From Paraspadella gotoi (taxonomy: Eukaryota; Animalia; Chaetognatha), in assembly GCA_051294375.1 (NCBI GenBank), contig JBJCIZ010000080.1:1-15676 (forward strand): DNA of 15,676 nucleotides. Direction: 5' to 3'. Below the pieces are notes generated by a model that was given only the letters and a program-made list of their open reading frames with translations, made no database searches and had not been told where the DNA came from. This document shows, piece after piece, positions 1,935 to 15,676 of this stretch. Position numbers and translations under genes: made by a program. How positions within the stretch are numbered: position 1 is the first letter of the stretch; every line of letters begins with the position of its first letter.

Positions 1935-3306
1935 TTCCACCCGAATCTTTTGACGGCAGTCAACCGACGTCAGAAACGTGAATATTAGTGGCAGCCCGAA
2001 TTGTAAGGACAATACGGCACCGCCGGACCAATCCGAATTCCAAAATGGAACCGTAAAGGTAAACTAATGGTATTCGATCATGGCGAAGCGATATACACGC
2101 TTTCTGAAATCCATCTTTCTGCCCCCCGCAGGAACGAAATCGGATCTCGAAGTTAATGACGGACTGACTAGGAACGCCATCAACCCCTTGAACGTCAAAC
2201 GATCTTGGCGGAGCCAAAAGGTGAATTTCCCAATCTCGAACAACCGAAACCGAAAGACACAGTAAAAATCTTCAAAAATTCAAATTTTTCTTACCGCAGG
2301 TAACCGCATAAAGGATCGACACATACTTCAGGCACATCAGGCACGCACACAACATCCTTCAACGATCCTTGATGAAGACCTCCGATGCGAAAGACCAAAA
2401 TTTATGAAGATCTGTGAACATTCGTCTCCTTACCATTTTAGAGACGCACAACCGTACTACGACACGAAAAACCTTAGACTAATCCTACGGGAAAAAATAG
2501 AAAATTGAGACGAAATTTGAAAAACACTAAATTTTCGGATCAATCTATACTAAACGTAAAGGTTGTAACAATTTCATGAAATAAAATGAATTGACAAGCC
2601 TTATCTACCTTATGTCGTAGTAGGTTGGCAAAAGAAAAAATGTTAAACTAAACCTAAAAATGAAATCAATACTATCAAATACTAAACCCGAAAAATACGT
2701 AAAATTTAAAAATCAAATACACTAAGAAATATAATCAGTATCAAATAAGCGTTAAAGGAAGTTACTTTATTGAGTTTTATTTTTGCTTTTAAGCCAACCC
2801 TTGCCGACAGCAACAGCAGCCAATTATTTCGGCAAGGTAAAACTATAAGGACTACGGATGGGTTTTTATTTTTTTTAGGCTGAGACCCTCAAACCCTGCA
2901 AAAAGCAGAAAACAAGCAATAACATGGATTAAACCTTTTATCGCTGCTCCCTGTTCAGCTCCCTGCTATTCTTATACAGGGAGAAAAACATACAAAAATG
3001 AGGACGTTACAAAGTCCAAAAGATTACGGAACTAGCTGGACATGCCAAAGAAAGCCGTGACGCAAACGTAAGGGACGGTAAGTACATTAAAGTGGGTTTC
3101 GGTAAGGTTGTTTTACCGCTGAGGAAAAACGGTTGGTTAACAAAAACAACCCTTCGTTACCGATATTTCGAAAAACTTCGGAGTTCCGACGACTTACCCA
3201 ACCAACTTGAATTGAAGCACGGCTATACGCTAGGGAAAGCCGCCCGCCTGAAGCGGCGCGCAGGGAGACAGCATGGACAGGGTAGACCGTCGCTCGAAAG
3301 CCTAAA

Positions 3307-4830
3307 TTAGAAGACAAGTTATCTGGTCGTTTTATAATGTTATTTTAATATTTATTTACAATTTACTGATAGGAAATGATTGTCAATATTTGTTGATGTA
3401 ACATTTCAAATCCAATCGACCACGCGTTGAAAAATAATCTAACAAAAAAATGGTCATTTTCAACGCCCAATTTTAAAACAAATCTTGCGGTTCGTTAATT
3501 TCTTTTTTGGTTCACTTTAAATAGCTTTTGCCGGAGTGACTTCATTGTAATTAAAAAAATTGATTTTTCTTTGATATCTTTTTGAAACCAAAAATGAATC
3601 TAGAACGATGAGACTGGTTCATATTAAAGCCATTAATTATGGGGCATCTTTTCCATGATAATTTTTTCTCAATATTCCACGGATTTTTAAAAATTCTGGT
3701 TCGGAATCTTAGTTCAAAAGTATAACAACTTTTGTGAAATTTAAATTAATCACACTTGGCTGTATTTAAAAATAAATAAATATAGATTCTGAAAGAAAAG
3801 ATATTTATGTTTCTGATATAAACAAAAATTTTCTGATACCTCAAATGTTTATATAATTACTAAGGATAATGAATTATCATTTTTTGTTGAAACAAAAAAA
3901 ATTTAAAAAGATTCATGAAGGAACCTAAAAAATATGATTTAAATATGAAAATTTAGGAGTTCAAACTTTGTTTCCGTGTGATTTTAAAAACTACTGACAT
4001 AGGCTAAAAGGCTATATTATCAGATTTTTAAATTTTGTGTATCTTCAGGTGCAAATTTAAAACCTTTTGCATAATGCCCCATTTAGCTATATGTAATATA
4101 ACTATGTTTTTATTAAAAAAAAGATAACAATCCTTTTAATAACACGCAAATGGCATGTAGCTGTATTGGGTTTAAAATTGTTGTGTTTTTATTTTTTATT
4201 ATTAATCAAGGCTTTTATCAATAAAGGGGTAAATTCAAAGGAAAATAAGGTTATTTTTTCAAGGCTCCATATTGATACTTTGATATCAATTGAATTTTCT
4301 TTGTTCCGGACCAACGAAATGTACCTAAGACATTTGTAGTTTCATTAGCTAATCTTTATTTTTTATAATTTAAGGGCCATTTGGCAAAAACAGTTAAGAA
4401 ACAAAAATGGACAACAAATTTTGAGAAAAAAATTTGGATTAATTGCTTATTATTTCTTACAATTTGTCGTCAATTTATTTTTTCGTATTGTGCTTTGGAA
4501 AGTTAGGCTAAAACCCAACAGGAATCGGATCCAGTGCATTTGACCGCTGTATAATTTAATTTGACTATACAGTAAATACCGCAAAAAATAAAAAAAAATT
4601 TAAAAAGAATTCAGAACCAAGCGTCGTTTATTTCAGTTATTTTTAGTTCAAGACCTTTATGGATTTTCTTTGTTTCGGCGGCGTTGGATAGCCAAACACT
4701 GGCCAGTTCAGATCATGCATGTTTTTGTAATATTAATGCGCTACTGGTGCAAAAAATGCTAGGAACCAAAATTTATCAGAAACGCTTCGTTTCTTTTCGA
4801 TTTTTTTTTTTAAGGCGAGCGACATATCTA
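3307..4830. mobile_element. AT-rich insert, probably a non-autonomous DNA-element-type repeat (boundaries approximate)
   Basis: Abrupt change to very AT-rich, CpG-poor sequence without the A-skew of the flanks. No ORF. Contains the inverted copy of 1-272. CTAAA occurs on both sides (3302-3306, 4831-4835), a weak TSD candidate. Confidence 0.45.
4041..4335. repeat. Inverted copy of repeat at 1-272
   Basis: Direct alignment with the reverse complement of 1-272. Confidence 0.9.
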
Positions 4831-5557: not shown

Positions 5558-5685
5558 AAAAATACAAGGGAGAACTACGTTAGTAATACCTTTATCGGAG
5601 ATAATCGAGGCCGTTACAAAAAAATACCAAAGGGGAGAACTACGTAGTTAATATACGCTTTATCCGGAGATAATTCGAGCCGTAC
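5558..5685. repeat. Imperfect tandem duplication, 2 x ~60-68 bp
   Basis: aaaaatacaagggagaactacgttagtaatacctttatcggagataatcgaggccgttac followed by aaaaaaataccaaaggggagaactacgtagttaatatacgctttatccggagataattcgagccgtac. Confidence 0.9.
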
Positions 5686-7386
5686 GAACGATGAAAGTGA
5701 GGTTAACCTGCGAAAACCAAACATAACAAAAATAACAATATTACTCAAAAAAATAAATATTTATTTAAACTAAAAAATTTAAGAAAAAACGTAAGCACGC
5801 TCTATTCTCAGAAAATGTCCGCCGCACAAGCTTCTCTACGCCCGACGAAACCTCCGAAATTCTAGCTTTAACCCGAGATCGTTCGTCACGACCGGCGCCC
5901 ACTATGAACCGGAAGCGTCGTCCACGCAGGCGAAACCGAATGTTGGCGTGCATTTAACACGTGGGAAAATTTGGGGAAAAAATTCGCACGCAGTGAGAAA
6001 AAGGGGGCGTAGGCTTACGTCGCCATCGTCGGATGCATCGAAAACGATCCGATGGCCGCGTTTACTAAAAATTCCTTTACATAAACAAAAAAATTCTAAA
6101 AATTCCGAGACTTTTGAAAAAGGCAAAAATCGAGATTGAAAAAAGTCAAATTATTAAAATGGTCAAACGAGGAGAGGGGTGGTAGCGGGCCGACTTTCCG
6201 CGGCACGGACAAGCCCTCCCACGAACCTGCCCCCGCAGCCCATGGAAAAACACCCTCTCAGCGATGTTTTGTTTACCGGAACGGAGTCAAAGTAAACAAA
6301 ACAAGGTGAGACTCGTCACAAAGGCGCCCCTACGCCATCGAGTTAACGTAGTGCAGAAATATTCTCGCCGTTGAAAGAACCCCCCTCCTCGACCTAGCGG
6401 AGAGGAGAAGACGTCTGGGACGGAACCACTCTCAAACCCGGGGGGGCGCGGCGCCAGAAAGTTAATAATAAAGTTTCTTATGCCTTATGAAACGTCTTGA
6501 TGTTTAATGGTACCTTAATAAATAATCAAAGCATATGATATTCAGCTGTCTTACCGGCGAACAATTGTAATTCTATATGAATATTCAACAGTAAAAATAT
6601 AAATATTAATCACAATTATTCGCAAAGAAAAAGTAATAGACGCAATAGATCCAAATGTTAACAGCTCTTTCTTATATCCATTCAAAACGGAATGAGAAAT
6701 GTTTACACTCTTTATACAATATTAAAGTCTTTGTTACATGCAGCTTCTTTCCGCAGCGACGGACAGCAGACGACGGGCCCCGCTGACCGAACGGGCCGTA
6801 TTGAATAATAAGTGGTCGTCAGGACTTTACAGCTCCTCCCGCACCCACCAAGATCCTGTCCTCAGGACAAGCAGGGCAGCAGGGCGTATATTCTGGATGA
6901 CCATCCTTAACGGTAGCCATCTTGGATTTTTCATTCACTGACCAAGCTGTCTTCGACATCCGATGCTCTTATGTGCCACGCGGGATTTTAATAGAATTTT
7001 CATAAAGTACTCAACTAGTTGTCAAAGGATGAAGTTAGGATCTCTTTTTAATTCCGCTTTCTTTACGGCAAAACCAGAGTGGTACGGGTCCCCAGAAAAA
7101 GATAAAGATCATACTCCTAGTCCCAAGCAGAGGACAGGTTTTCAACAGTTATTTTATATGCCAAGAGATCATTTATGCATCGAAAAGAAATTGTATATGG
7201 GATCCCAAAAGAAATAGAAGAGGTATCCCATGCTTCCCTAGAATCGCCGGAGACAACAAATTTGTTAGAGTTCCGTAGTGTTCCTTCACGATTTAGTTTG
7301 AGTATTTTTTTTTTCTTGTCTATTGCTTATTACAGATACTGAATGAAAATGTAAACACATCGGCTATTCAAACAAAAGAAAAACAA

Positions 7387-9963
7387 TCACTGAATCCTAT
7401 ACAACATGTCAGTTTCTGCAGCCATATGATACAACAAACACGGGGAGATGTCAGACGAGTTGGCGAGGCGACAGGTTTTCATGGCGCTGCAATATGTCCT
7501 TTTCGTTTTCCTTTCAATACTTTTCCACGAACCTAACCGTCGCTCTTTTTTATTAAGTCCAGTTGGCTCCAGAATTTTCGGACACATAGCGAACCGAGCT
7601 AAAGCGGCGCGCAACGCCTTGGCGCCAACAGTAATGATGTCCTTCTCCAGTAACAGCTTCCAGATATTTTTCTGGTCGGCATCCATCTCACCTTCAACGA
7701 TCCAAATAAACACCTTACGCGATCCAGCGATCGAGAAAGCTAATATGACCAAAGGACGTTGACGATGCGCTTCGCTTGAAATTCTATAAGAAGCACAGAT
7801 TGGGCGTGAAGAATTTCTTAAAACGACTTTTAATTCACGATTATCCTCAGGCATAATAATCGTGTAATCACGCGAGTGATCAGAATCTTTTTCTTGCCAA
7901 CAGATTGGGTCGCGATACGCGTCGCGATTTGTAACTACAAATTCGCCTTCACTCCAATACCTTGTCACTGCAGTGAACAAATTTGGCCGAGGAGCTAGAA
8001 TGGGAAGGGCCCTGGCCCTATCATCAGTTCCGTCTCCAACGAAATCGGCGATCATCTGAATAAGGTCTCTCTCAGGCCCTTCCTGCTTATCCCATGCTCT
8101 TATAAACTCATTCAATTTCTTCCTAAGAATATGTTGCTTATAAGCATTCGGAAAGGGCATGTCCGCAATGGATGAAAGGAATTTTATCAAAGGATCCAAC
8201 TTTACCTCACTGGTAAACCCGATGTATTTGTCAATCGCTGTTGGCCCTAGATATGGAGATTCTAGAATTTTCGCCTCGCGATCCCTTTCGCTAAGACCAA
8301 AGAATGAGCCTATCTCTTCCAGGAGAGCGGGAATATATTTCCTGTGCCTTAGGCCGTATTGGGCCCAAAAAATCGGCGCATTTCCTAATACGAGAATGGC
8401 TGAAAACGGCGGAACATCCAATTCCCTAACCAACCGGTCCATTTCGTGAATCATGGGTCTATACATGACTGCCCTCAAAAACCTCTTTTTCTCCGACAGA
8501 GTCCATCGACATCGCAACTCCTCTAGCAGCTCACGTTGCTTATTCCTCGACACTCGCATTTGTCTGACGTTCAATAAAAAGGCCACTGCCTCCGGTCCTG
8601 CATCTCGACCTATTGGCAACACTTTTTCCAAAATTGCCGTCGCAGTTGTCTGACGAAACGGTTTAAGCAACCGTTTTAGTGCTTGTTGTTGCTTTAATGT
8701 CAACCTTTTAACCAATATGGGTTCGTCCTGTAACTCAGATGAATCCTCTTCCGCGATCTCAATGATTGGAGAAGCATCAACATCAATCATTTCTTCCTCC
8801 ATCACCGACTCTATCACAACAACACGCTGATCCTCGGTAGTAGCAGAACTAACAGACCTATTGTGAAAAGGATCCCAAGGGGTTTGCGGAGTTTTTGCCG
8901 CCTCCAACTCCATCTTTTTCACCTGTTCCGGAGTTAACCAGATCTCATCGTCGTCCTGAACCTTAATGCCCGATGGTCCGGATATCGTGGGTTTGAACCA
9001 AACGTTTTTATTCGGAAAAACGTGAGTCAATACCACAACATCCCTAACCAAATCGTCCTGCAAGGCCTCGTGAATCGCTTTTGCCAAGAAATATACATCT
9101 TCTAAGATGTAGCGGCGTTGTTCCTTTTTCCAGAAAGGTAAGTACCACGCGCTAAGTGTGACGGCTGGGTCCTTCTTTAGCGTGAATCCATCAAACGCAT
9201 TTTCAATAATTCGCAAGACACTGCCCGTCATTTCATTCTTTTCCTCTTCTGAGACTTGCCAAGCCTCACAAAAAAAATCCGAAGCCTCTATGTACTTCAC
9301 TCCTCTCAAAAATCCATCGTAAAACGAATTGATCAGATTCGCGAGGTCATCGAAAATATTCACGTTTATAAACACTACAGCAGGATGCGTGAGCAGCTCC
9401 TCTAATTTAGGAGGCATACGAGGTCGTCCCGAAAAGTCATTATTGGAGAGGTTAACGCAATGAACTGCGAAGGTTTCTAACCCCAACTCGTCATCTACCG
9501 CTGTCATGGCGATGCCCATGGCATCCGCCTGCAATACACCTTTCAATCTTCGTGCTTCCATCTCCGACCAATAATTGTCAACTTTCGCGAGTGGAGACTT
9601 AGCTTTCCACCTCTTTCTCAATGTCTTGGTCCAATTTTTTCTCTGTTCTAATTCGTCTTTCGTAATTCCATCCATCAACAACTCTTTCTCATGCCAAGAT
9701 GTGAAGCGGGGAGGGAGGACGTGTGGCCGCTGCATGCAGCAGACTCCCTCAATGTCCATGACAATGAGGGATACGCGCCCCTCAATCTTCATCTTGTCTG
9801 CCCTTTTTAATTGAACGTCTAAAAACGAATTCATTTTCTTAGAGTCGTGACAGATCTTTCCGATTATCTCGTGATCCTCTACTGGAAATGACAAATCAGT
9901 TTTACGTGTTTCGCCTCGCCTTCTTCGCCATTTTTCCTGTAATTTGTTCCTAAAGTCTGACAT
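7387..9963 (-). CDS. ORF3: DEDDy 3'-5' exonuclease (RNase D/WRN/Mut-7 family) plus second degenerate exonuclease domain, ~858 aa from first ATG (frame open from 10032)
   Basis: ExoI VMDIEG (9748-9756), ExoII LLTHPAVVFINVNIFDDL (9346-9351) and ExoIII SAWYLPFWKKEQRRYILED (9097-9111). The C-terminal LVILAFSIAGSRKVFIW...KLLLEKDIITVG...YHMAAETD repeats the fold without the catalytic acids. No signal peptide or TM segment is evident. Confidence 0.8.
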   Translation of the reverse strand: MSDFRNKLQEKWRRRRGETRKTDLSFPVEDHEIIGKICHDSKKMNSFLDVQLKRADKMKIEGRVSLIVMDIEGVCCMQRPHVLPPRFTSWHEKELLMDGITKDELEQRKNWTKTLRKRWKAKSPLAKVDNYWSEMEARRLKGVLQADAMGIAMTAVDDELGLETFAVHCVNLSNNDFSGRPRMPPKLEELLTHPAVVFINVNIFDDLANLINSFYDGFLRGVKYIEASDFFCEAWQVSEEEKNEMTGSVLRIIENAFDGFTLKKDPAVTLSAWYLPFWKKEQRRYILEDVYFLAKAIHEALQDDLVRDVVVLTHVFPNKNVWFKPTISGPSGIKVQDDDEIWLTPEQVKKMELEAAKTPQTPWDPFHNRSVSSATTEDQRVVVIESVMEEEMIDVDASPIIEIAEEDSSELQDEPILVKRLTLKQQQALKRLLKPFRQTTATAILEKVLPIGRDAGPEAVAFLLNVRQMRVSRNKQRELLEELRCRWTLSEKKRFLRAVMYRPMIHEMDRLVRELDVPPFSAILVLGNAPIFWAQYGLRHRKYIPALLEEIGSFFGLSERDREAKILESPYLGPTAIDKYIGFTSEVKLDPLIKFLSSIADMPFPNAYKQHILRKKLNEFIRAWDKQEGPERDLIQMIADFVGDGTDDRARALPILAPRPNLFTAVTRYWSEGEFVVTNRDAYRDPICWQEKDSDHSRDYTIIMPEDNRELKVVLRNSSRPICASYRISSEAHRQRPLVILAFSIAGSRKVFIWIVEGEMDADQKNIWKLLLEKDIITVGAKALRAALARFAMCPKILEPTGLNKKERRLGSWKSIERKTKRTYCSAMKTCRLANSSDISPCLLYHMAAETDMLYRIQ

Positions 9964-10246
9964 TGTGTACTCCCCTAAAAGCGATCTCTCATTAACCACT
10001 GCAAATGAATCCTTTGGGTAATTGTGACACAAATAAAATAATCAAAGGGGTATAGTATTGTGATAAAAATTATCGCGGCTTAAAAAACTAAAATCCGACT
10101 TTTTTTTTCACATTGTATGCTCAAAAATCTGTACCAATGACTTTTTTATTCTTGTAATAAAGCTACTTCTTGATTAGTTTGTAGAGCTTTTGAGACATTG
10201 AATTGCCCTAAGGCTAAAAGCATAAGAATAAAAGGAATTAACTACG

Positions 10247-10296
10247 TTTTTCTTGTTTTTTTTTTGTTTTTATTTTTTTTTTGTAATTTTTTTTTT
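10247..10296 (-). repeat. A-rich tract (element sense) in pol-ORF3 spacer
   Basis: About 50 nt of nearly pure T on the plus strand. Confidence 0.8.
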
Positions 10297-10454
10297 CACG
10301 CGCGCGATCTATTTACAATGTTAAAATCAATTTAAAAACCTCTATCTCCCTAATGCCTTCAACCGAGCTTGGCTCTTTGGAACCGTTATTTAAATTTAAT
10401 AATATTTTTAATAATTATTTACAGTTTAAGATGCATATTATTATTATTAATACC

Positions 10455-13400
10455 TTATTCCTGTTCCGCTTCCGTCTCTTCGTCCGATTGAACTTGGCCT
10501 CTTTCCAAACGGGCGTAATCAACTCTCGGCCGGCGTTGTCTCCTGGGTGTTGATTCTTTCAATCCTGGCGCATTGAAACTCGATAAATTTCTAATTTCAC
10601 GGCTCGTTGATGTTCCCACAGATTCAAAGCTGATTATTGGCCGAATTGATTGACGAAACATTTTTCCTCTCCCTCGTGGAATCAACGGAGAGTCGGAATA
10701 TGAGCCACGGATTGCTCTTGTACTTATATTGAAATCTATTTGTATATCTTCTTGTTCCGCGGGTTCGGTCTCCGCCTCCGACTCACCCCCTTCTGGAGAT
10801 CGAGTTCCAACCGATCGATCGTAATCCGGAATTATCGATTCAGACGGAGAATTCTGTTCGTTGATGACCGCGTCGTCGCCAGCGTCGCTAAAGAGAGAAT
10901 CGTCGGAAGAATAATCGCAAACCTCCTCCGTCATAGTAAGCCTCGGCTTTTCTGCCCGCTTTTCAACTTCCTGCAACCATAGTTGCAATCCAGTAGGGAG
11001 ACATCCCTCTTTCATTTCTTCTTTCATGATATCCAATGAACTGTGATCTTCCATTTGATTTCGTCCCTCTTCCGCCGTGTAACATGATTCAGGTTCGCGA
11101 AACTTTTTCAAATCACATCCCGGGCGAATCTCTTCATCTCCGCGCTCATTTATTATCACATATGCATTACCTTTTCCTTCTCCGTGAGGATGTAATTCCT
11201 TCTTAACTGTCCATGGGCCTTCGTAATGAATACTTAGTTTATCTCTTTTTTCTCGCGGCAATAATTTCAGGACTTTTTGCCCCTGTTGAAAAATTTCCAC
11301 GTGTTTACCTTTAACACTCTGCCGAACCATCTGCTCCTGATATTTTATCATTTGTTCGTTTCTCATGTTCCTCATGTTGTCGACCTTGTCTTCCATTTCC
11401 TTCACATACATTCTCATTGGTTTACGAGTGCCCTGTAATTCCAACGGAGTTTCTAATTGATTTTTCAAGGGGATTCGCGGCTCGCGACCAAACATCAATT
11501 TAAATGGTGAATATCCCGTGGCTGGATGAGGAATAGAGTTGTAAGTAAACTCAATCCATGCAAGATATTTAGACCAACGTTTTCCGAACTGATTTACTCG
11601 TTTAGCCAACTCGCTAATAATGGTTCTATTTTTTCTTTCCACTTGGCCCTGTTTCTGAGGGTGGTAAGTCATGGAAAATTCTTTCTTAGTCTCATAGATC
11701 TTACACAACGCTTCCACTAGTCTATTCTTGAATTCAGGCCCATTATCCGATCCCCATACTACGGGAAAACCGAACCTCGTAATAAACTGTTCCAATTTCC
11801 TCGCGACCGTTGTCGATTCTGCCCCTACAATGGGAAATAACACACAGTATCTTGTGAATCTGTCCTCAATGACAAGGATGTGATCAAATCCATCTGAAGG
11901 CGTTCCAATTTTCAATAAATCCGTGGCCACGTGATGCATTGGAAAGTTTGCATTTTGTGGTATCATGGGAACTATTTTTTTTCCCTTAGATCTCATTGCC
12001 TGACACTCAAAACATCTGTTCACCTTTTCCGTGATGTCTCGGCCCATGCCCGGCCACACGCAAAAGGAATCTAGCCTCGCCTTCGCCCTTTTTGCCGAAG
12101 GGTGACCACTACGATAATCGCCATGCGCGCAGTCCATGACCTTTGGAACGAGTGAAGCGGGGATTACTACGCGTAAACATTGTTCCCCTTTGTGCGATTT
12201 TGCATGATACAACATTCCGTCTATTATCATCAACCCGTCACACTGTTTGGAAAACCATTGTGGTATCCGTAACATCTGTAGTTTTGTCTTAATGTCTTCT
12301 GGTTTTTCCATCAATATCTGAATAACTTGACTGATAACAGCATCTGCCACTTGCGCATTCTTTATGTTATTTATTTCATCTTTATCAGATATTAATGATG
12401 ACAATGGAACCTCTGCGTCACAACATGCTCCTAGCAAAATGTATTCTTCTTTTGCCGTATTATCTGGTGGATCGGCATGTGGAGCTCTTGATAAGGCATC
12501 CGCGTCTGCGTGAGCCTTTCCAGCTTTGTGTTTTATCACGAAATCATATGTGGATAACTCCAGTGCCCATCTAGTTCTCTTCCCAGAAGCATCCTTTCTC
12601 GTGTCTACACTGAGACATGACAAGAGTGGTTTATGATCTGTATATATCACAAATGGCTTGAATCTCAGGTAGTGGGAGAATTGTCTCACTGCCCAGATTA
12701 TACCATACATTTCCTTATCAAAGGGGGCCCAAGCCCGTTCTGCAGTGTTCAGTTTCTGACTCGCAGCGGCTACTAGCACTTCCTTCCCCCTTCCGTCTTT
12801 TTGCGTCAAGACTGCTCCCACGGTGTTTTGACTACCGTCGGGTTTCACAAAAAATTGCTTCTCAAAGTCTGGATAAGCCGTGGCCGTACCTGCCATCAAT
12901 TCTTTTTTCAATTCTAAAAATGCTTCTATACATTGTTCATCCCATGTAAACTCTTGATCTTTTTTCAACAGATCTGTCAGTGGCTCCGCGATCTTTGCAA
13001 AATTTGGGATGTGACTACGATAGTAGTTAGCCAAACCGAGAAAACCTCTGACCTGTTTGACATCAGTGGGCTCTGGCCAAGCATCAACTTTGGCCAAGTT
13101 GACTGGATCCGGTTTTATTCCTTCATTGTTTAGCCTAAATCCTAGTACCGAAACCTCGCCTCTCGCGAAATCGCATTTCTCCGGGTGTAGCTTCATTCCT
13201 GCCCGTTTCATGGCGTCCAAGGCTTTTTCCAACATATCCAGATGTGTCTCAGCGTCAGGAGTCGCTATCAAAATGTCGTCCAAATACGCGAGCATATATT
13301 CAATTGGAAGTCCTCTGAAAACCAATTCTACTAGCGCTTGAAATGAAGCTGAGCTATTTTTAGCTCCCATTGGTAAACGTATATATTCCAAATGTCTGCA

Positions 13401-14084
13401 ACCATCTGAAAAGGCAAAGTATTTTCTCTGACTCTCCAGAACTTCCATGTGATAATATCCTTTCAAGAGATCCAGCTTTGAAAAGACTTGTGGATTTTTC
13501 AACCTACGGACACCATCTTGGATGTTTGGAAGAGGGAAATGTGCCTTTTCTGTAACTTTATTCAATCTCCTGAAATCCGTGCAATATCTCCAAGAGCCAT
13601 CTTTCTTCTTTACCAGAACAATTGGTGCATTGTATGGGCTTTCTGATTCTCGAATTGTTCCTAATGCCAACATTTTATCAGTTTCTCTATTTACTGCTTC
13701 TTGGACGTCAGGAGGTGGAGCCCGATAGTTTGGCACAAAAACCGGCTTATCAGTTGTCAACTTTATTTGATGATATGCTAATTCAGTCCTACCCAGATCA
13801 GATTCCGTCTTAGCGAAGACATCGCTGTAACGATCTACCAATTCGCGAAATCGTCGCTCTTGGTCTTCATTAAAACATTCGCCACATTTCACTGGCCCAA
13901 ATTGTTTTTCTGCGGTGGACTCATCTTCGTCCGCTTCCGGGATAAGACCAGGCATCTCCTCATCGTCTTCCTCATTTGGCTCCAATACATACGGATTGTA
14001 TCGACTCTCTTCCGCCGACATATTCGCTATTGGTTTCGCTTCGTCATCTGGTTCCTCTTCTAGTTCTTCCATTGTTGGAAACAA
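10455..14084 (-). CDS. pol: Pol polyprotein: reverse transcriptase, RNase H, integrase
   Basis: RT: SPYNAPIVLVKKKDGSWRYCTDFRRLN, LPMGAKNS, YLDD (13275-13286). RNase H: VKPDGS, DKEMYGI, YTDHKPL, ADALSR. Integrase: HHCC (AHGDYRSGH...CFEC), D-D-E (VATDL, SDNGPEF, QVERKNR) and a GPW (GPY/F) motif. The TTG start is not the real start; this is the continuation of the upstream PR frame. Confidence 0.97.
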   Translation of the reverse strand: MFPTMEELEEEPDDEAKPIANMSAEESRYNPYVLEPNEEDDEEMPGLIPEADEDESTAEKQFGPVKCGECFNEDQERRFRELVDRYSDVFAKTESDLGRTELAYHQIKLTTDKPVFVPNYRAPPPDVQEAVNRETDKMLALGTIRESESPYNAPIVLVKKKDGSWRYCTDFRRLNKVTEKAHFPLPNIQDGVRRLKNPQVFSKLDLLKGYYHMEVLESQRKYFAFSDGCRHLEYIRLPMGAKNSSASFQALVELVFRGLPIEYMLAYLDDILIATPDAETHLDMLEKALDAMKRAGMKLHPEKCDFARGEVSVLGFRLNNEGIKPDPVNLAKVDAWPEPTDVKQVRGFLGLANYYRSHIPNFAKIAEPLTDLLKKDQEFTWDEQCIEAFLELKKELMAGTATAYPDFEKQFFVKPDGSQNTVGAVLTQKDGRGKEVLVAAASQKLNTAERAWAPFDKEMYGIIWAVRQFSHYLRFKPFVIYTDHKPLLSCLSVDTRKDASGKRTRWALELSTYDFVIKHKAGKAHADADALSRAPHADPPDNTAKEEYILLGACCDAEVPLSSLISDKDEINNIKNAQVADAVISQVIQILMEKPEDIKTKLQMLRIPQWFSKQCDGLMIIDGMLYHAKSHKGEQCLRVVIPASLVPKVMDCAHGDYRSGHPSAKRAKARLDSFCVWPGMGRDITEKVNRCFECQAMRSKGKKIVPMIPQNANFPMHHVATDLLKIGTPSDGFDHILVIEDRFTRYCVLFPIVGAESTTVARKLEQFITRFGFPVVWGSDNGPEFKNRLVEALCKIYETKKEFSMTYHPQKQGQVERKNRTIISELAKRVNQFGKRWSKYLAWIEFTYNSIPHPATGYSPFKLMFGREPRIPLKNQLETPLELQGTRKPMRMYVKEMEDKVDNMRNMRNEQMIKYQEQMVRQSVKGKHVEIFQQGQKVLKLLPREKRDKLSIHYEGPWTVKKELHPHGEGKGNAYVIINERGDEEIRPGCDLKKFREPESCYTAEEGRNQMEDHSSLDIMKEEMKEGCLPTGLQLWLQEVEKRAEKPRLTMTEEVCDYSSDDSLFSDAGDDAVINEQNSPSESIIPDYDRSVGTRSPEGGESEAETEPAEQEDIQIDFNISTRAIRGSYSDSPLIPRGRGKMFRQSIRPIISFESVGTSTSREIRNLSSFNAPGLKESTPRRQRRPRVDYARLERGQVQSDEETEAEQE

Positions 14085-14350
14085 AGGGAATCCCTCACCT
14101 GGTTGCGATCGTCGTCGACAAAGCCATACCTAACAGCTAGGGACGCTATCGGCAAGCCTTCAGTCGGCGTCTGGCGCACTTGACTGGACTTCTCGCCCGC
14201 ATCCAAACAGTCTGCCGGTAGTGGGATGTCGACGACCGTTGGGTTGATGGTATCAACCAATGCAACCGGCGTTCCCGCGCTAATATTAATCTTAGAAGGC
14301 CATTGATTAAAAATTTCTAATGTCATTATTTCATTTCTTGGGTCAAGCAC
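14060..14350 (-). pseudogene. pol: Frameshifted middle segment of pol (post-protease, dUTPase-fold-like spacer)
   Basis: TLEIFNQWPSKINISAGTPVALV resembles the degenerate dUTPase-like beta region often found between PR and RT in animal Gypsy elements. It overlaps neighbouring frames at both ends. Confidence 0.7.
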
Positions 14351-15003
14351 TGTGTGCCTGCAACTTGTGGTACTTCTTTGTGATACTCAGATGAAAAGGG
14401 TCGTGCATATATGGCATATGGATGTTCATTATTGTCAGTCCTACTTACTGAGGGTCCCGCCAAATAAACCTTCACTAGATTCCGCGTTAGTGGGGGTAGT
14501 GTTACTGACTCAAAAGCTGCTAGATGAGGTGGTGGAGGCTCAACAGGAGGTGGTGGACGATACAGTGGAATTCTTACCTGATCAAAGGTAACTGCATTAG
14601 TAGTGAAATCTATAACTGCTTTGTGTTGTTCCAAAAATGGTAACCCGATAACCACGGGGTGAACCAAGTTAGGAACAATGTTAAATTCTGCTCTAAAGTG
14701 TTTATTATTGTCTCCTATTTGGAAATCGACAAGGGCCTTTCCTGTGGATTTAATTGGGCATTTGTTTATACTTATGCATAAGGCGGGTTTATCATTCAAT
14801 AACCGTACTTTGGAGGGAGGTAATAGACATAATGTTTCCTCATCTATACAATTTCCTCCTTCAGCACCTGTATCTATTAATGTGGTTATGGTGGTGGATC
14901 CTATTTTTAAGTTAACTGAGCATCTGCAATCGTTTTTCGTTCCAGGGTTTGGATCTTTCCCAGTGGCTTCCCCCTGGTTGGCAGCACTGGCTATCAAAAA
15001 CCC
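14326..15003 (-). CDS. pol: Aspartic protease (N-terminal part of pol, -1 frame relative to gag)
   Basis: TLIDTGAEG (DTG 14866-14874) and VVIGLPFLEQHKAVID retropepsin motifs. Confidence 0.92.
   Translation of the reverse strand, partial: GFLIASAANQGEATGKDPNPGTKNDCRCSVNLKIGSTTITTLIDTGAEGGNCIDEETLCLLPPSKVRLLNDKPALCISINKCPIKSTGKALVDFQIGDNNKHFRAEFNIVPNLVHPVVIGLPFLEQHKAVIDFTTNAVTFDQVRIPLYRPPPPVEPPPPHLAAFESVTLPPLTRNLVKVYLAGPSVSRTDNNEHPYAIYARPFSSEYHKEVPQVAGTQCLTQEMK
14960..15003 (-). promoter_or_regulatory. -1 programmed ribosomal frameshift signal (gag-pol)
   Basis: G GGU UUU heptamer (15003-14997) in the gag frame directly before the gag stop, a 6-nt spacer, then stem CCAGUG (14990-14985)/CACUGG (14965-14960). 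A -1 shift enters the protease frame (GF-LIAS). Confidence 0.85.
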
Positions 15004-15676
15004 GCGCCAGGGTACCACACTCCGTCTGGATGTAACACATATCCATAACGACCGACCTCCGGGCTCTGGAAATTATTCCATTCTTGGTTGTAATCATATG
15101 CAGCCTGCCCGGCCTCCATGCAAGGATGGGTAAATGAATTGACATTTGCTTGCTCCGCAGCCACCGCTTCATTAAACTGATTCTCTGAATTATCTATTTC
15201 TCTTGATGCTGCTGCTATTGCTGGTGGTGCTGTGGCTGAAGCAGGGTTGGTTCCGGGAGTGATGAACCTTTGTGACTGTCCAGTTGCCTGGAATCCTCTA
15301 GGGAATCCACCTCGCCCAAAACCTCGGTACGGTCTTCTTGCCACTGTGTACGATGGAGTCGCACGTGAGTACGTGACTCCAGATGCTCCAGTCAGAGACG
15401 TCTGTAGATCTTTTATAGCGTTGGTCATCTTGGTGAACCCTTCCTCCATCTCCTTCTTCATTATCGTCATCGAATCCTGCGTCGCGGCTTGAGACGCTTC
15501 CACTCTTTGTATCGCCATTTCATTTATCTTTATTTTATGCTTCAGGTCCAAGTACTCGTTACTCGTCAACCGATTGGATTGTTCCCTTGCCGCTGGTGCC
15601 GGCACTTGTGCCGCCAACAATCCTTGAGACACCGCCCCTGGGTCTGAAATCGTTTCCACTGGTCTGGATGCTTCCC
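14994..15676 (-). CDS. gag: Gag, C-terminal part (frame open to window edge)
   Basis: Lies directly upstream of PR and is joined to it by the slippery site. Contains a coiled-coil-like segment and an RG-rich motif RRPYRGFGRGGFPRGF. No stop codon up to position 15676. The capsid domain is not visible. Confidence 0.8.
   Translation of the reverse strand, partial: EASRPVETISDPGAVSQGLLAAQVPAPAAREQSNRLTSNEYLDLKHKIKINEMAIQRVEASQAATQDSMTIMKKEMEEGFTKMTNAIKDLQTSLTGASGVTYSRATPSYTVARRPYRGFGRGGFPRGFQATGQSQRFITPGTNPASATAPPAIAAASREIDNSENQFNEAVAAEQANVNSFTHPCMEAGQAAYDYNQEWNNFQSPEVGRYGYVLHPDGVWYPGAGF

Follow-up and report, generated by a model that had tools for sequence, protein, structure and literature searches.

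The field has yet to settle whether transposons of animals make proteins that counter silencing by piRNAs or siRNAs, a question raised by a third open reading frame (ORF3) lying behind a retrotransposon pol in the 15,676-nt stretch of DNA analysed here (the window). The preliminary description had placed an intact ORF of about 858 aa in the env slot, and this was confirmed, since ORF3 starts with an ATG, runs for 858 aa on the minus strand and begins 491 nt past the stop of the reverse transcriptase (RT)-RNase H-integrase frame, on the same strand. The longest open frame in shuffled bases was 188 codons (200 shuffles of the same base composition), versus 858 for ORF3. An env identity was dropped, the modelled fold being that of an exonuclease. 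How ORF3 is expressed may involve an internal promoter or splicing, both of which are candidate routes. Contigs from four public runs, two of them possibly from the same source DNA, match ORF3 with 0-1 differing letters per listed piece, and among the listed runs the stretch was found in at least nine from three studies, five of which possibly come from the source DNA and none of which is an RNA run. The element is laid out as follows.

7387..9963, minus strand: ORF3, 858 aa, intact (predicted active DEDDy domain, acidic linker, helical region and probably dead exonuclease-like domain)
9964..10454, minus strand: AT-rich spacer of 491 nt between pol and ORF3
10455..14129, minus strand: Ty3/Gypsy pol frame coding for RT, RNase H and integrase, 1224 codons from stop to stop
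14060..15072, minus strand: protease and protease-RT linker, in two further frames here and in one frame in close relatives (tblastn of relatives)
14994..15674, minus strand: 3' end of a frame that runs off the window, gag by position and without a gag Pfam match

The pol frame matches RVT_1, RT_RNaseH, Integrase_H2C2 and rve in that order and, judged by its protease-RT-RNase H-integrase succession, the element is classed as a Ty3/Gypsy LTR retrotransposon. The gag-position frame ends in a slippery-type heptamer, GGGTTTT (14997-15003), and the protease is in the -1 frame. Within a tree of 115 RT-RNase H sequences, this pol belongs to a clade of 43 without a name (support 1.0, stem 0.48; P0079-P0129), no relative with a name exceeds 43% identity in RT-RNase H, and the nearest named pols are from animals. 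Between protease and RT, where Juno and Vesta of rotifers have a dUTPase, there is a conserved stretch that is dUTPase-like by eye only, the dUTPase family being absent from the precomputed Pfam lists of close pol relatives. The reading frame changes twice in the protease-RT stretch, first around 14356 and again somewhere in the interval from about 14180 to 13970, and some contigs are gapped in this stretch, which reflects either a lesion or an assembly error; ORF3 and the RT-RNase H-integrase frame are intact.

What, then, is ORF3? The preliminary description had read it as an N-terminal DEDDy domain carrying the motifs DIE, FDDL and YILED, with a long insert between ExoI and ExoII, followed by an acidic linker, a helical region and a second exonuclease-like domain at the C terminus. 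All but the last of these could be placed on the protein, and the RNase D-like fold that had been proposed as a check was found for the N-terminal half; the last is likely.

9004..9963, minus strand: N-terminal DEDDy 3'-5' exonuclease domain (aa 1-320), predicted
9754-9756 and 9748-9750, minus strand: ExoI residues D70 and E72 (motif D70-I-E72)
9529..9744, minus strand: basic insert of helices (aa 74-145) that follows ExoI and precedes the second strand, specific to the family
9346-9348, minus strand: ExoII residue D206, the second D of FDDL
9109-9111 and 9097-9099, minus strand: ExoIII residues Y285 and D289 (motif Y285-x3-D289)
8713..9003, minus strand: acidic disordered linker (aa 321-417), pLDDT under 50, net charge -16
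7915..8712, minus strand: all-helical, mostly basic region (aa 418-683), from the model
7390..7914, minus strand: C-terminal domain (aa 684-858), exonuclease-like by element order, Atlas matches and conservation, without catalytic acids

The N-domain is predicted, from its residues and its model, to be an active DEDDy 3'-5' exonuclease. The model and a fold search give it a DnaQ/RNase D-like fold, the closest solved structure being the WRN exonuclease (18% identity) and Egalitarian ranking below WRN, Nibbler and RNase D; aligned by structure, the active domain matches from residue 14-25 onwards. Every row of this search covered the N-domain and none extended past residue ~365, hence it is silent on the C-terminal half. 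Across the deep divergence of the family all five catalytic positions (D70, E72, D206, Y285 and D289) are near-invariant in the alignment, D206 being kept in 34 of 35 rows. The insert has helices at 90-141 predicted with high pLDDT, conserved W90, H91 and R108, and a net charge that is positive in 34 of 36 rows and zero in the other two, while the linker is very variable in length among family members. Run with ORF3 by itself, AlphaFold without an alignment reached a pLDDT of 35, a Pfam search returned 0 families, and a PDB search gave chance matches only. Rfam gave one sub-threshold match, taken as chance, and there was no phage match.

The helical region is confidently predicted and carries a positive net charge in 11 of 13 rows. 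Residues 684-858, also confidently modelled, form an alpha/beta domain in which a strand (701-703), a helix (708-717) and three strands (722-728, 738-745 and 750-755) are followed by a helix, a short strand, a helix and a long final helix (841-857), which in the model is the order of the N-domain minus its insert. The spacing between S725 and E850 is 125 residues, versus 138 between D108 and D246 of EXD2. An Atlas search with residues 418-858 returned PF01612 in 26 of 30 named matches, led by a 656-aa nematode cluster (0.92, 189 of 256 features), and one with residues 680-858 gave a top match at 0.90 with PF01612 on 11% of its members, scores that are uncalibrated for protein parts and come through a named-only filter that favours annotated clusters. 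Against this second exonuclease-like domain, profile-profile comparison of the N- and C-domains gave no signal (probability under 1%, with the insert included or set aside), and a profile of the C-terminal half found nothing significant in PDB or Pfam. The helical region had no sequence match in PDB, and its kinship with the N-terminal domain of Nibbler is an Atlas lead. On balance, an exonuclease fold for the C-domain is probable, and a Mut-7/Nibbler-type origin for the whole C-terminal half is a nearly balanced question that leans slightly towards no.

Whatever its origin, the C-domain is likely to be catalytically dead, the acids of ExoI, ExoII and ExoIII and the tyrosine being missing at the aligned motif positions. 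The ExoI positions are occupied by S725, which is variable, and R727; the ExoII stretch (775-789) has no conserved acid; and ExoIII reads H846-x3-E850, the protein ending 8 residues past E850. Conserved residues of the domain are R727, C825, H846 and E850, each present in 16 of 16 sequences, C688 in 15 of 16 and H696 in 12 of 16, and in one case (P0237) R727 and E850 are both absent. We read R727 and E850, at the ExoI-Glu and ExoIII-Asp positions, as a putative salt bridge that would plug the metal site, and C688, H696, C825 and H846 as a candidate Cys2His2 site that would bind zinc. A Cys-His-Cys zinc motif is described for Maelstrom and two Vesta ORFs (PMC5408684).

How unusual is this layout? 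As the preliminary description had stated, DEDDy ORF3s have a precedent in the LTR elements of bdelloid rotifers, where they are described for Juno and Vesta and shared with Athena/Terminon elements (Rodriguez et al. 2017, PMC5408684; PMC6431247; PMC5718144). Such an ORF3 is therefore already known, and is here extended beyond rotifers: as in Juno and Vesta, a separate DEDDy third ORF follows a Ty3/Gypsy-type pol and keeps its catalytic residues. However, the Juno/Vesta motif is changed to DEED, versus D-E-D-D here with ExoII D206 kept, and the text, figures aside, describes single DEDDy ORFs, one of them fused to a GDSL esterase, with neither a helical nor a second dead domain (PMC5408684). 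The resemblance to Mut-7/Nibbler that had been claimed may hold for the helical-plus-exonuclease layout and not for family membership, since by its domains ORF3 does not look like a member. According to an account of Mut-7/Nibbler/EXD3 (PMC11347159), these proteins have a single exonuclease domain, whereas ORF3 has two exonuclease-like domains; they have a HEAT-like domain before the active DEDDy domain, which ORF3 lacks; and their domain after the helical region is active, whereas its counterpart in ORF3 is probably dead. MUT7-C, which follows the exonuclease in Mut-7/Nibbler/EXD3 and is absent in drosophilids, is absent from ORF3 as well. WRN and EXD2, at 18% identity, differ by the 70-residue basic helical insert that follows ExoI in ORF3, and WRN has a helicase, unlike the retrotransposon-encoded ORF3 (PMC6648332). 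In Egalitarian, EXD1 and Maelstrom, the DEDD fold is used for RNA binding, but these are host proteins with one such domain, unlike ORF3, which couples a probably dead domain with an intact one. Troyka was dropped as a comparison, with no nuclease ORF in the portion of text seen, and the available parts of PMC12440569 and PMC13524379 make no mention of DEDD. The preliminary description knew of no active-plus-dead tandem in a retroelement, and the open full-text literature, covered mostly as titles and abstract starts, yielded none; this layout looks undescribed in the literature covered.

The layout is not peculiar to one copy. When 1.84 billion representatives were scanned in full with HMMER, 57 homologues came up at E up to 0.001, whereas word-indexed searches with ORF3 found nothing. 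The 15 of these 57 clusters that were looked up are all without a name and come from ENA assemblies, one from Logan, and no named host protein was seen among the cluster members examined. Established families match sparsely, PF01612 in 6 of 58 members (E up to 0.1), RNase D of NCBIfam in 1 of 19 and PF01927 (MUT7-C) in 0 of 58. Among the 58 sequences, query included, 11 are complete, 37 have just the N-domain, 5 the N-domain plus helical region and 5 the helical region plus C-domain; most of the incomplete members are short and resemble pieces of contigs or damaged copies, although true N-only forms are possible. Once cluster members were added, the three-part layout held for 27 of the 28 proteins with at least 850 aa, a measure of consistency rather than independent detection since the part profiles were built from the same sequences, and P0020, the one that departs from it, clusters with a full-length protein (P0237). 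When trees were built separately for the N-domain and the C-domain of 11 full-length members, both had the same deep 6/5 split (100/100), most other forks being open, which indicates that the two domains have been co-inherited since the root of the sample. A scan for ORF3 loci in viral and metagenome contigs found none.

Model and sequence thus provide the fold of the N-domain, its catalytic residues, the three-part layout, the lack of catalytic acids in the C-domain and the position after pol, from which a function can be proposed. Our tentative reading, plausible although we would put it at somewhat less than even, is that ORF3 is a targeted RNA trimmer directed against host small-RNA silencing. 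The flexible acidic linker would tether the active N-domain to a basic, non-catalytic module; this C-terminal half would go back to a module of Mut-7/Nibbler type, a helical domain plus an exonuclease whose catalysis was lost, and its task would be to bind RNA or a complex of Argonaute/Piwi, much like the role proposed for the N-terminal domain of Nibbler; and the tethered N-domain would over-trim the 3' ends of guides or precursors. Action on small RNAs is favoured on account of the likeness between the targeting half and the helical-plus-exonuclease layout of Mut-7/Nibbler; in the latter, recruitment to AGO-bound RNA has been proposed as the job of the helical domain (PMC11347159). However, the nearest solved fold, WRN, is a DNA exonuclease, and specificity for RNA is putative. 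A sharper version, in which the captured and inactivated module docks on Piwi/Argonaute and the active exonuclease destroys guide RNAs, is doubtful, perhaps a one-in-four prospect. If this version is true, a whole clade of animal Gypsy elements would encode a small-RNA silencing suppressor built from host trimming machinery. The candidate is compact and soluble, D70A offers an obvious catalytic mutant, the halves can be separated and natural homologues number in the dozens, so that it makes the silencing question directly testable.

The same enzyme could instead serve the element itself, by processing the 3' ends of its RNA, primer or cDNA or by removing mismatched or non-templated bases for RT, with the dead domain binding element RNA or the particle; this is possible but on the unlikely side, close behind targeted trimming. 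Most Gypsy elements replicate without such an enzyme, as is generally known, and ORF3 is a separate frame, fused to pol in none of 120 pol relatives. It also diverges faster than pol, P0076 being 28% identical in the N-domain versus 47% for P0262 over RT-integrase, a difference that would suit conflict, though accessory genes usually show it too. On the other side, WRN is the best structural match, ORF3 appears to travel with pol (contig depth is similar on both and much higher in the flanks, although depth gives no copy number), and the rotifer authors name 3'-end processing of element RNA first for DEDDy ORF3s (PMC5408684). Were the role proofreading or trimming of cDNA, the replication of LTR retrotransposons would include a step so far undescribed.

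A more general form of hiding, in which the nuclease removes surplus dsRNA, cDNA or by-products of the element ahead of their encounter with host sensors or Dicer and has no specific link to Piwi/Argonaute, is distinctly unlikely. It suits an active DEDDy site combined with large basic surfaces in the insert, the helical region and a loop of the C-domain, and viral DEDD exonucleases with a sensor-hiding role are known, as in the arenavirus nucleoprotein, but it leaves unexplained the likeness of the dead half to nematode helical-plus-exonuclease proteins. Less probable still is a non-catalytic RNA adaptor that, like Egalitarian as portrayed in PMC13186709, would carry element RNA to germ cells or nuclei, given how little the catalytic positions vary and where Egalitarian falls in the fold ranking.

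Whichever reading holds, does ORF3 belong to the element at all? Outside the window, the link is a single 15,322-nt ENA contig size recorded both for P0076, an ORF3 homologue of a far subfamily, and for P0262, a pol of the clade. Among 41 distinct sizes of ORF3 contigs, no other reaches 9 kb; an exact match has a local chance of about 0.002, and ~0.5 chance matches are expected overall, the pol clusters having been chosen partly to seek that match. Another match, between P0238 and P0299 (1790 nt), was rejected since both genes cannot fit. The preliminary description had held that its proposal would fall if ORF3 were unlinked to pol in other copies: the 15,322-nt match speaks for linkage, whereas 13 other pol contigs of 9 kb or more have no ORF3 partner among the 15 of 57 ORF3 clusters looked up. 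A scan of 83 distant pol loci (39% identity at most) found none with an ORF3 homologue. Linkage as an element gene, seen directly once and indirectly once, is probable, and the best explanation is that ORF3 is a conserved accessory gene of a Ty3/Gypsy clade without a name. That it belongs to the host, or rides with some other repeat, and stands near pol by chance is highly improbable. In favour of this, there is no matching LTR pair or long direct repeat within the window (gag runs past its end, with the 5' LTR outside), and in the four runs examined none of the listed contigs spans both ORF3 and pol; against it, the frames are single, long, on the same strand and 491 nt apart, the ORF3 family and pol clade are both nameless and almost only from ENA assemblies, and the contig match and the lack of a named host protein point the same way.

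The long non-coding flank holds several repeats. On the minus strand, under very deep contig cover, lie a purine run AGCGGGGGG (988-996), TGTTAC at 987 and AAAACA near 298-303, so that 298-996 is likely to be a polypurine tract plus an LTR of ~690 bp, which may be the element's own 3' LTR (its 3' non-coding region would then exceed 6 kb) or that of another family. A second very deep, LTR-like repeat on the minus strand (6450-7016) ends in ATTAACT followed by a primer-site-like TGGCGCC (6450-6456), and shows no similarity to the candidate LTR at 298-987. Inverted copies of a ~290-bp repeat, 81% identical, lie at 1-272 and 4041-4334; contigs in two runs skip 3296-4830, a stretch that looks like an insertion; and near-tandem duplications occur in the non-coding region at 1818-1915 (27 nt at 71-nt spacing) and 5568-5683 (a ~65-nt unit present twice). 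Within pol, contig depth is raised at 14122-14644, and contigs in two runs (X5 and X6) join 10816 to 14067, which suggests a derivative without RT, RNase H and integrase.
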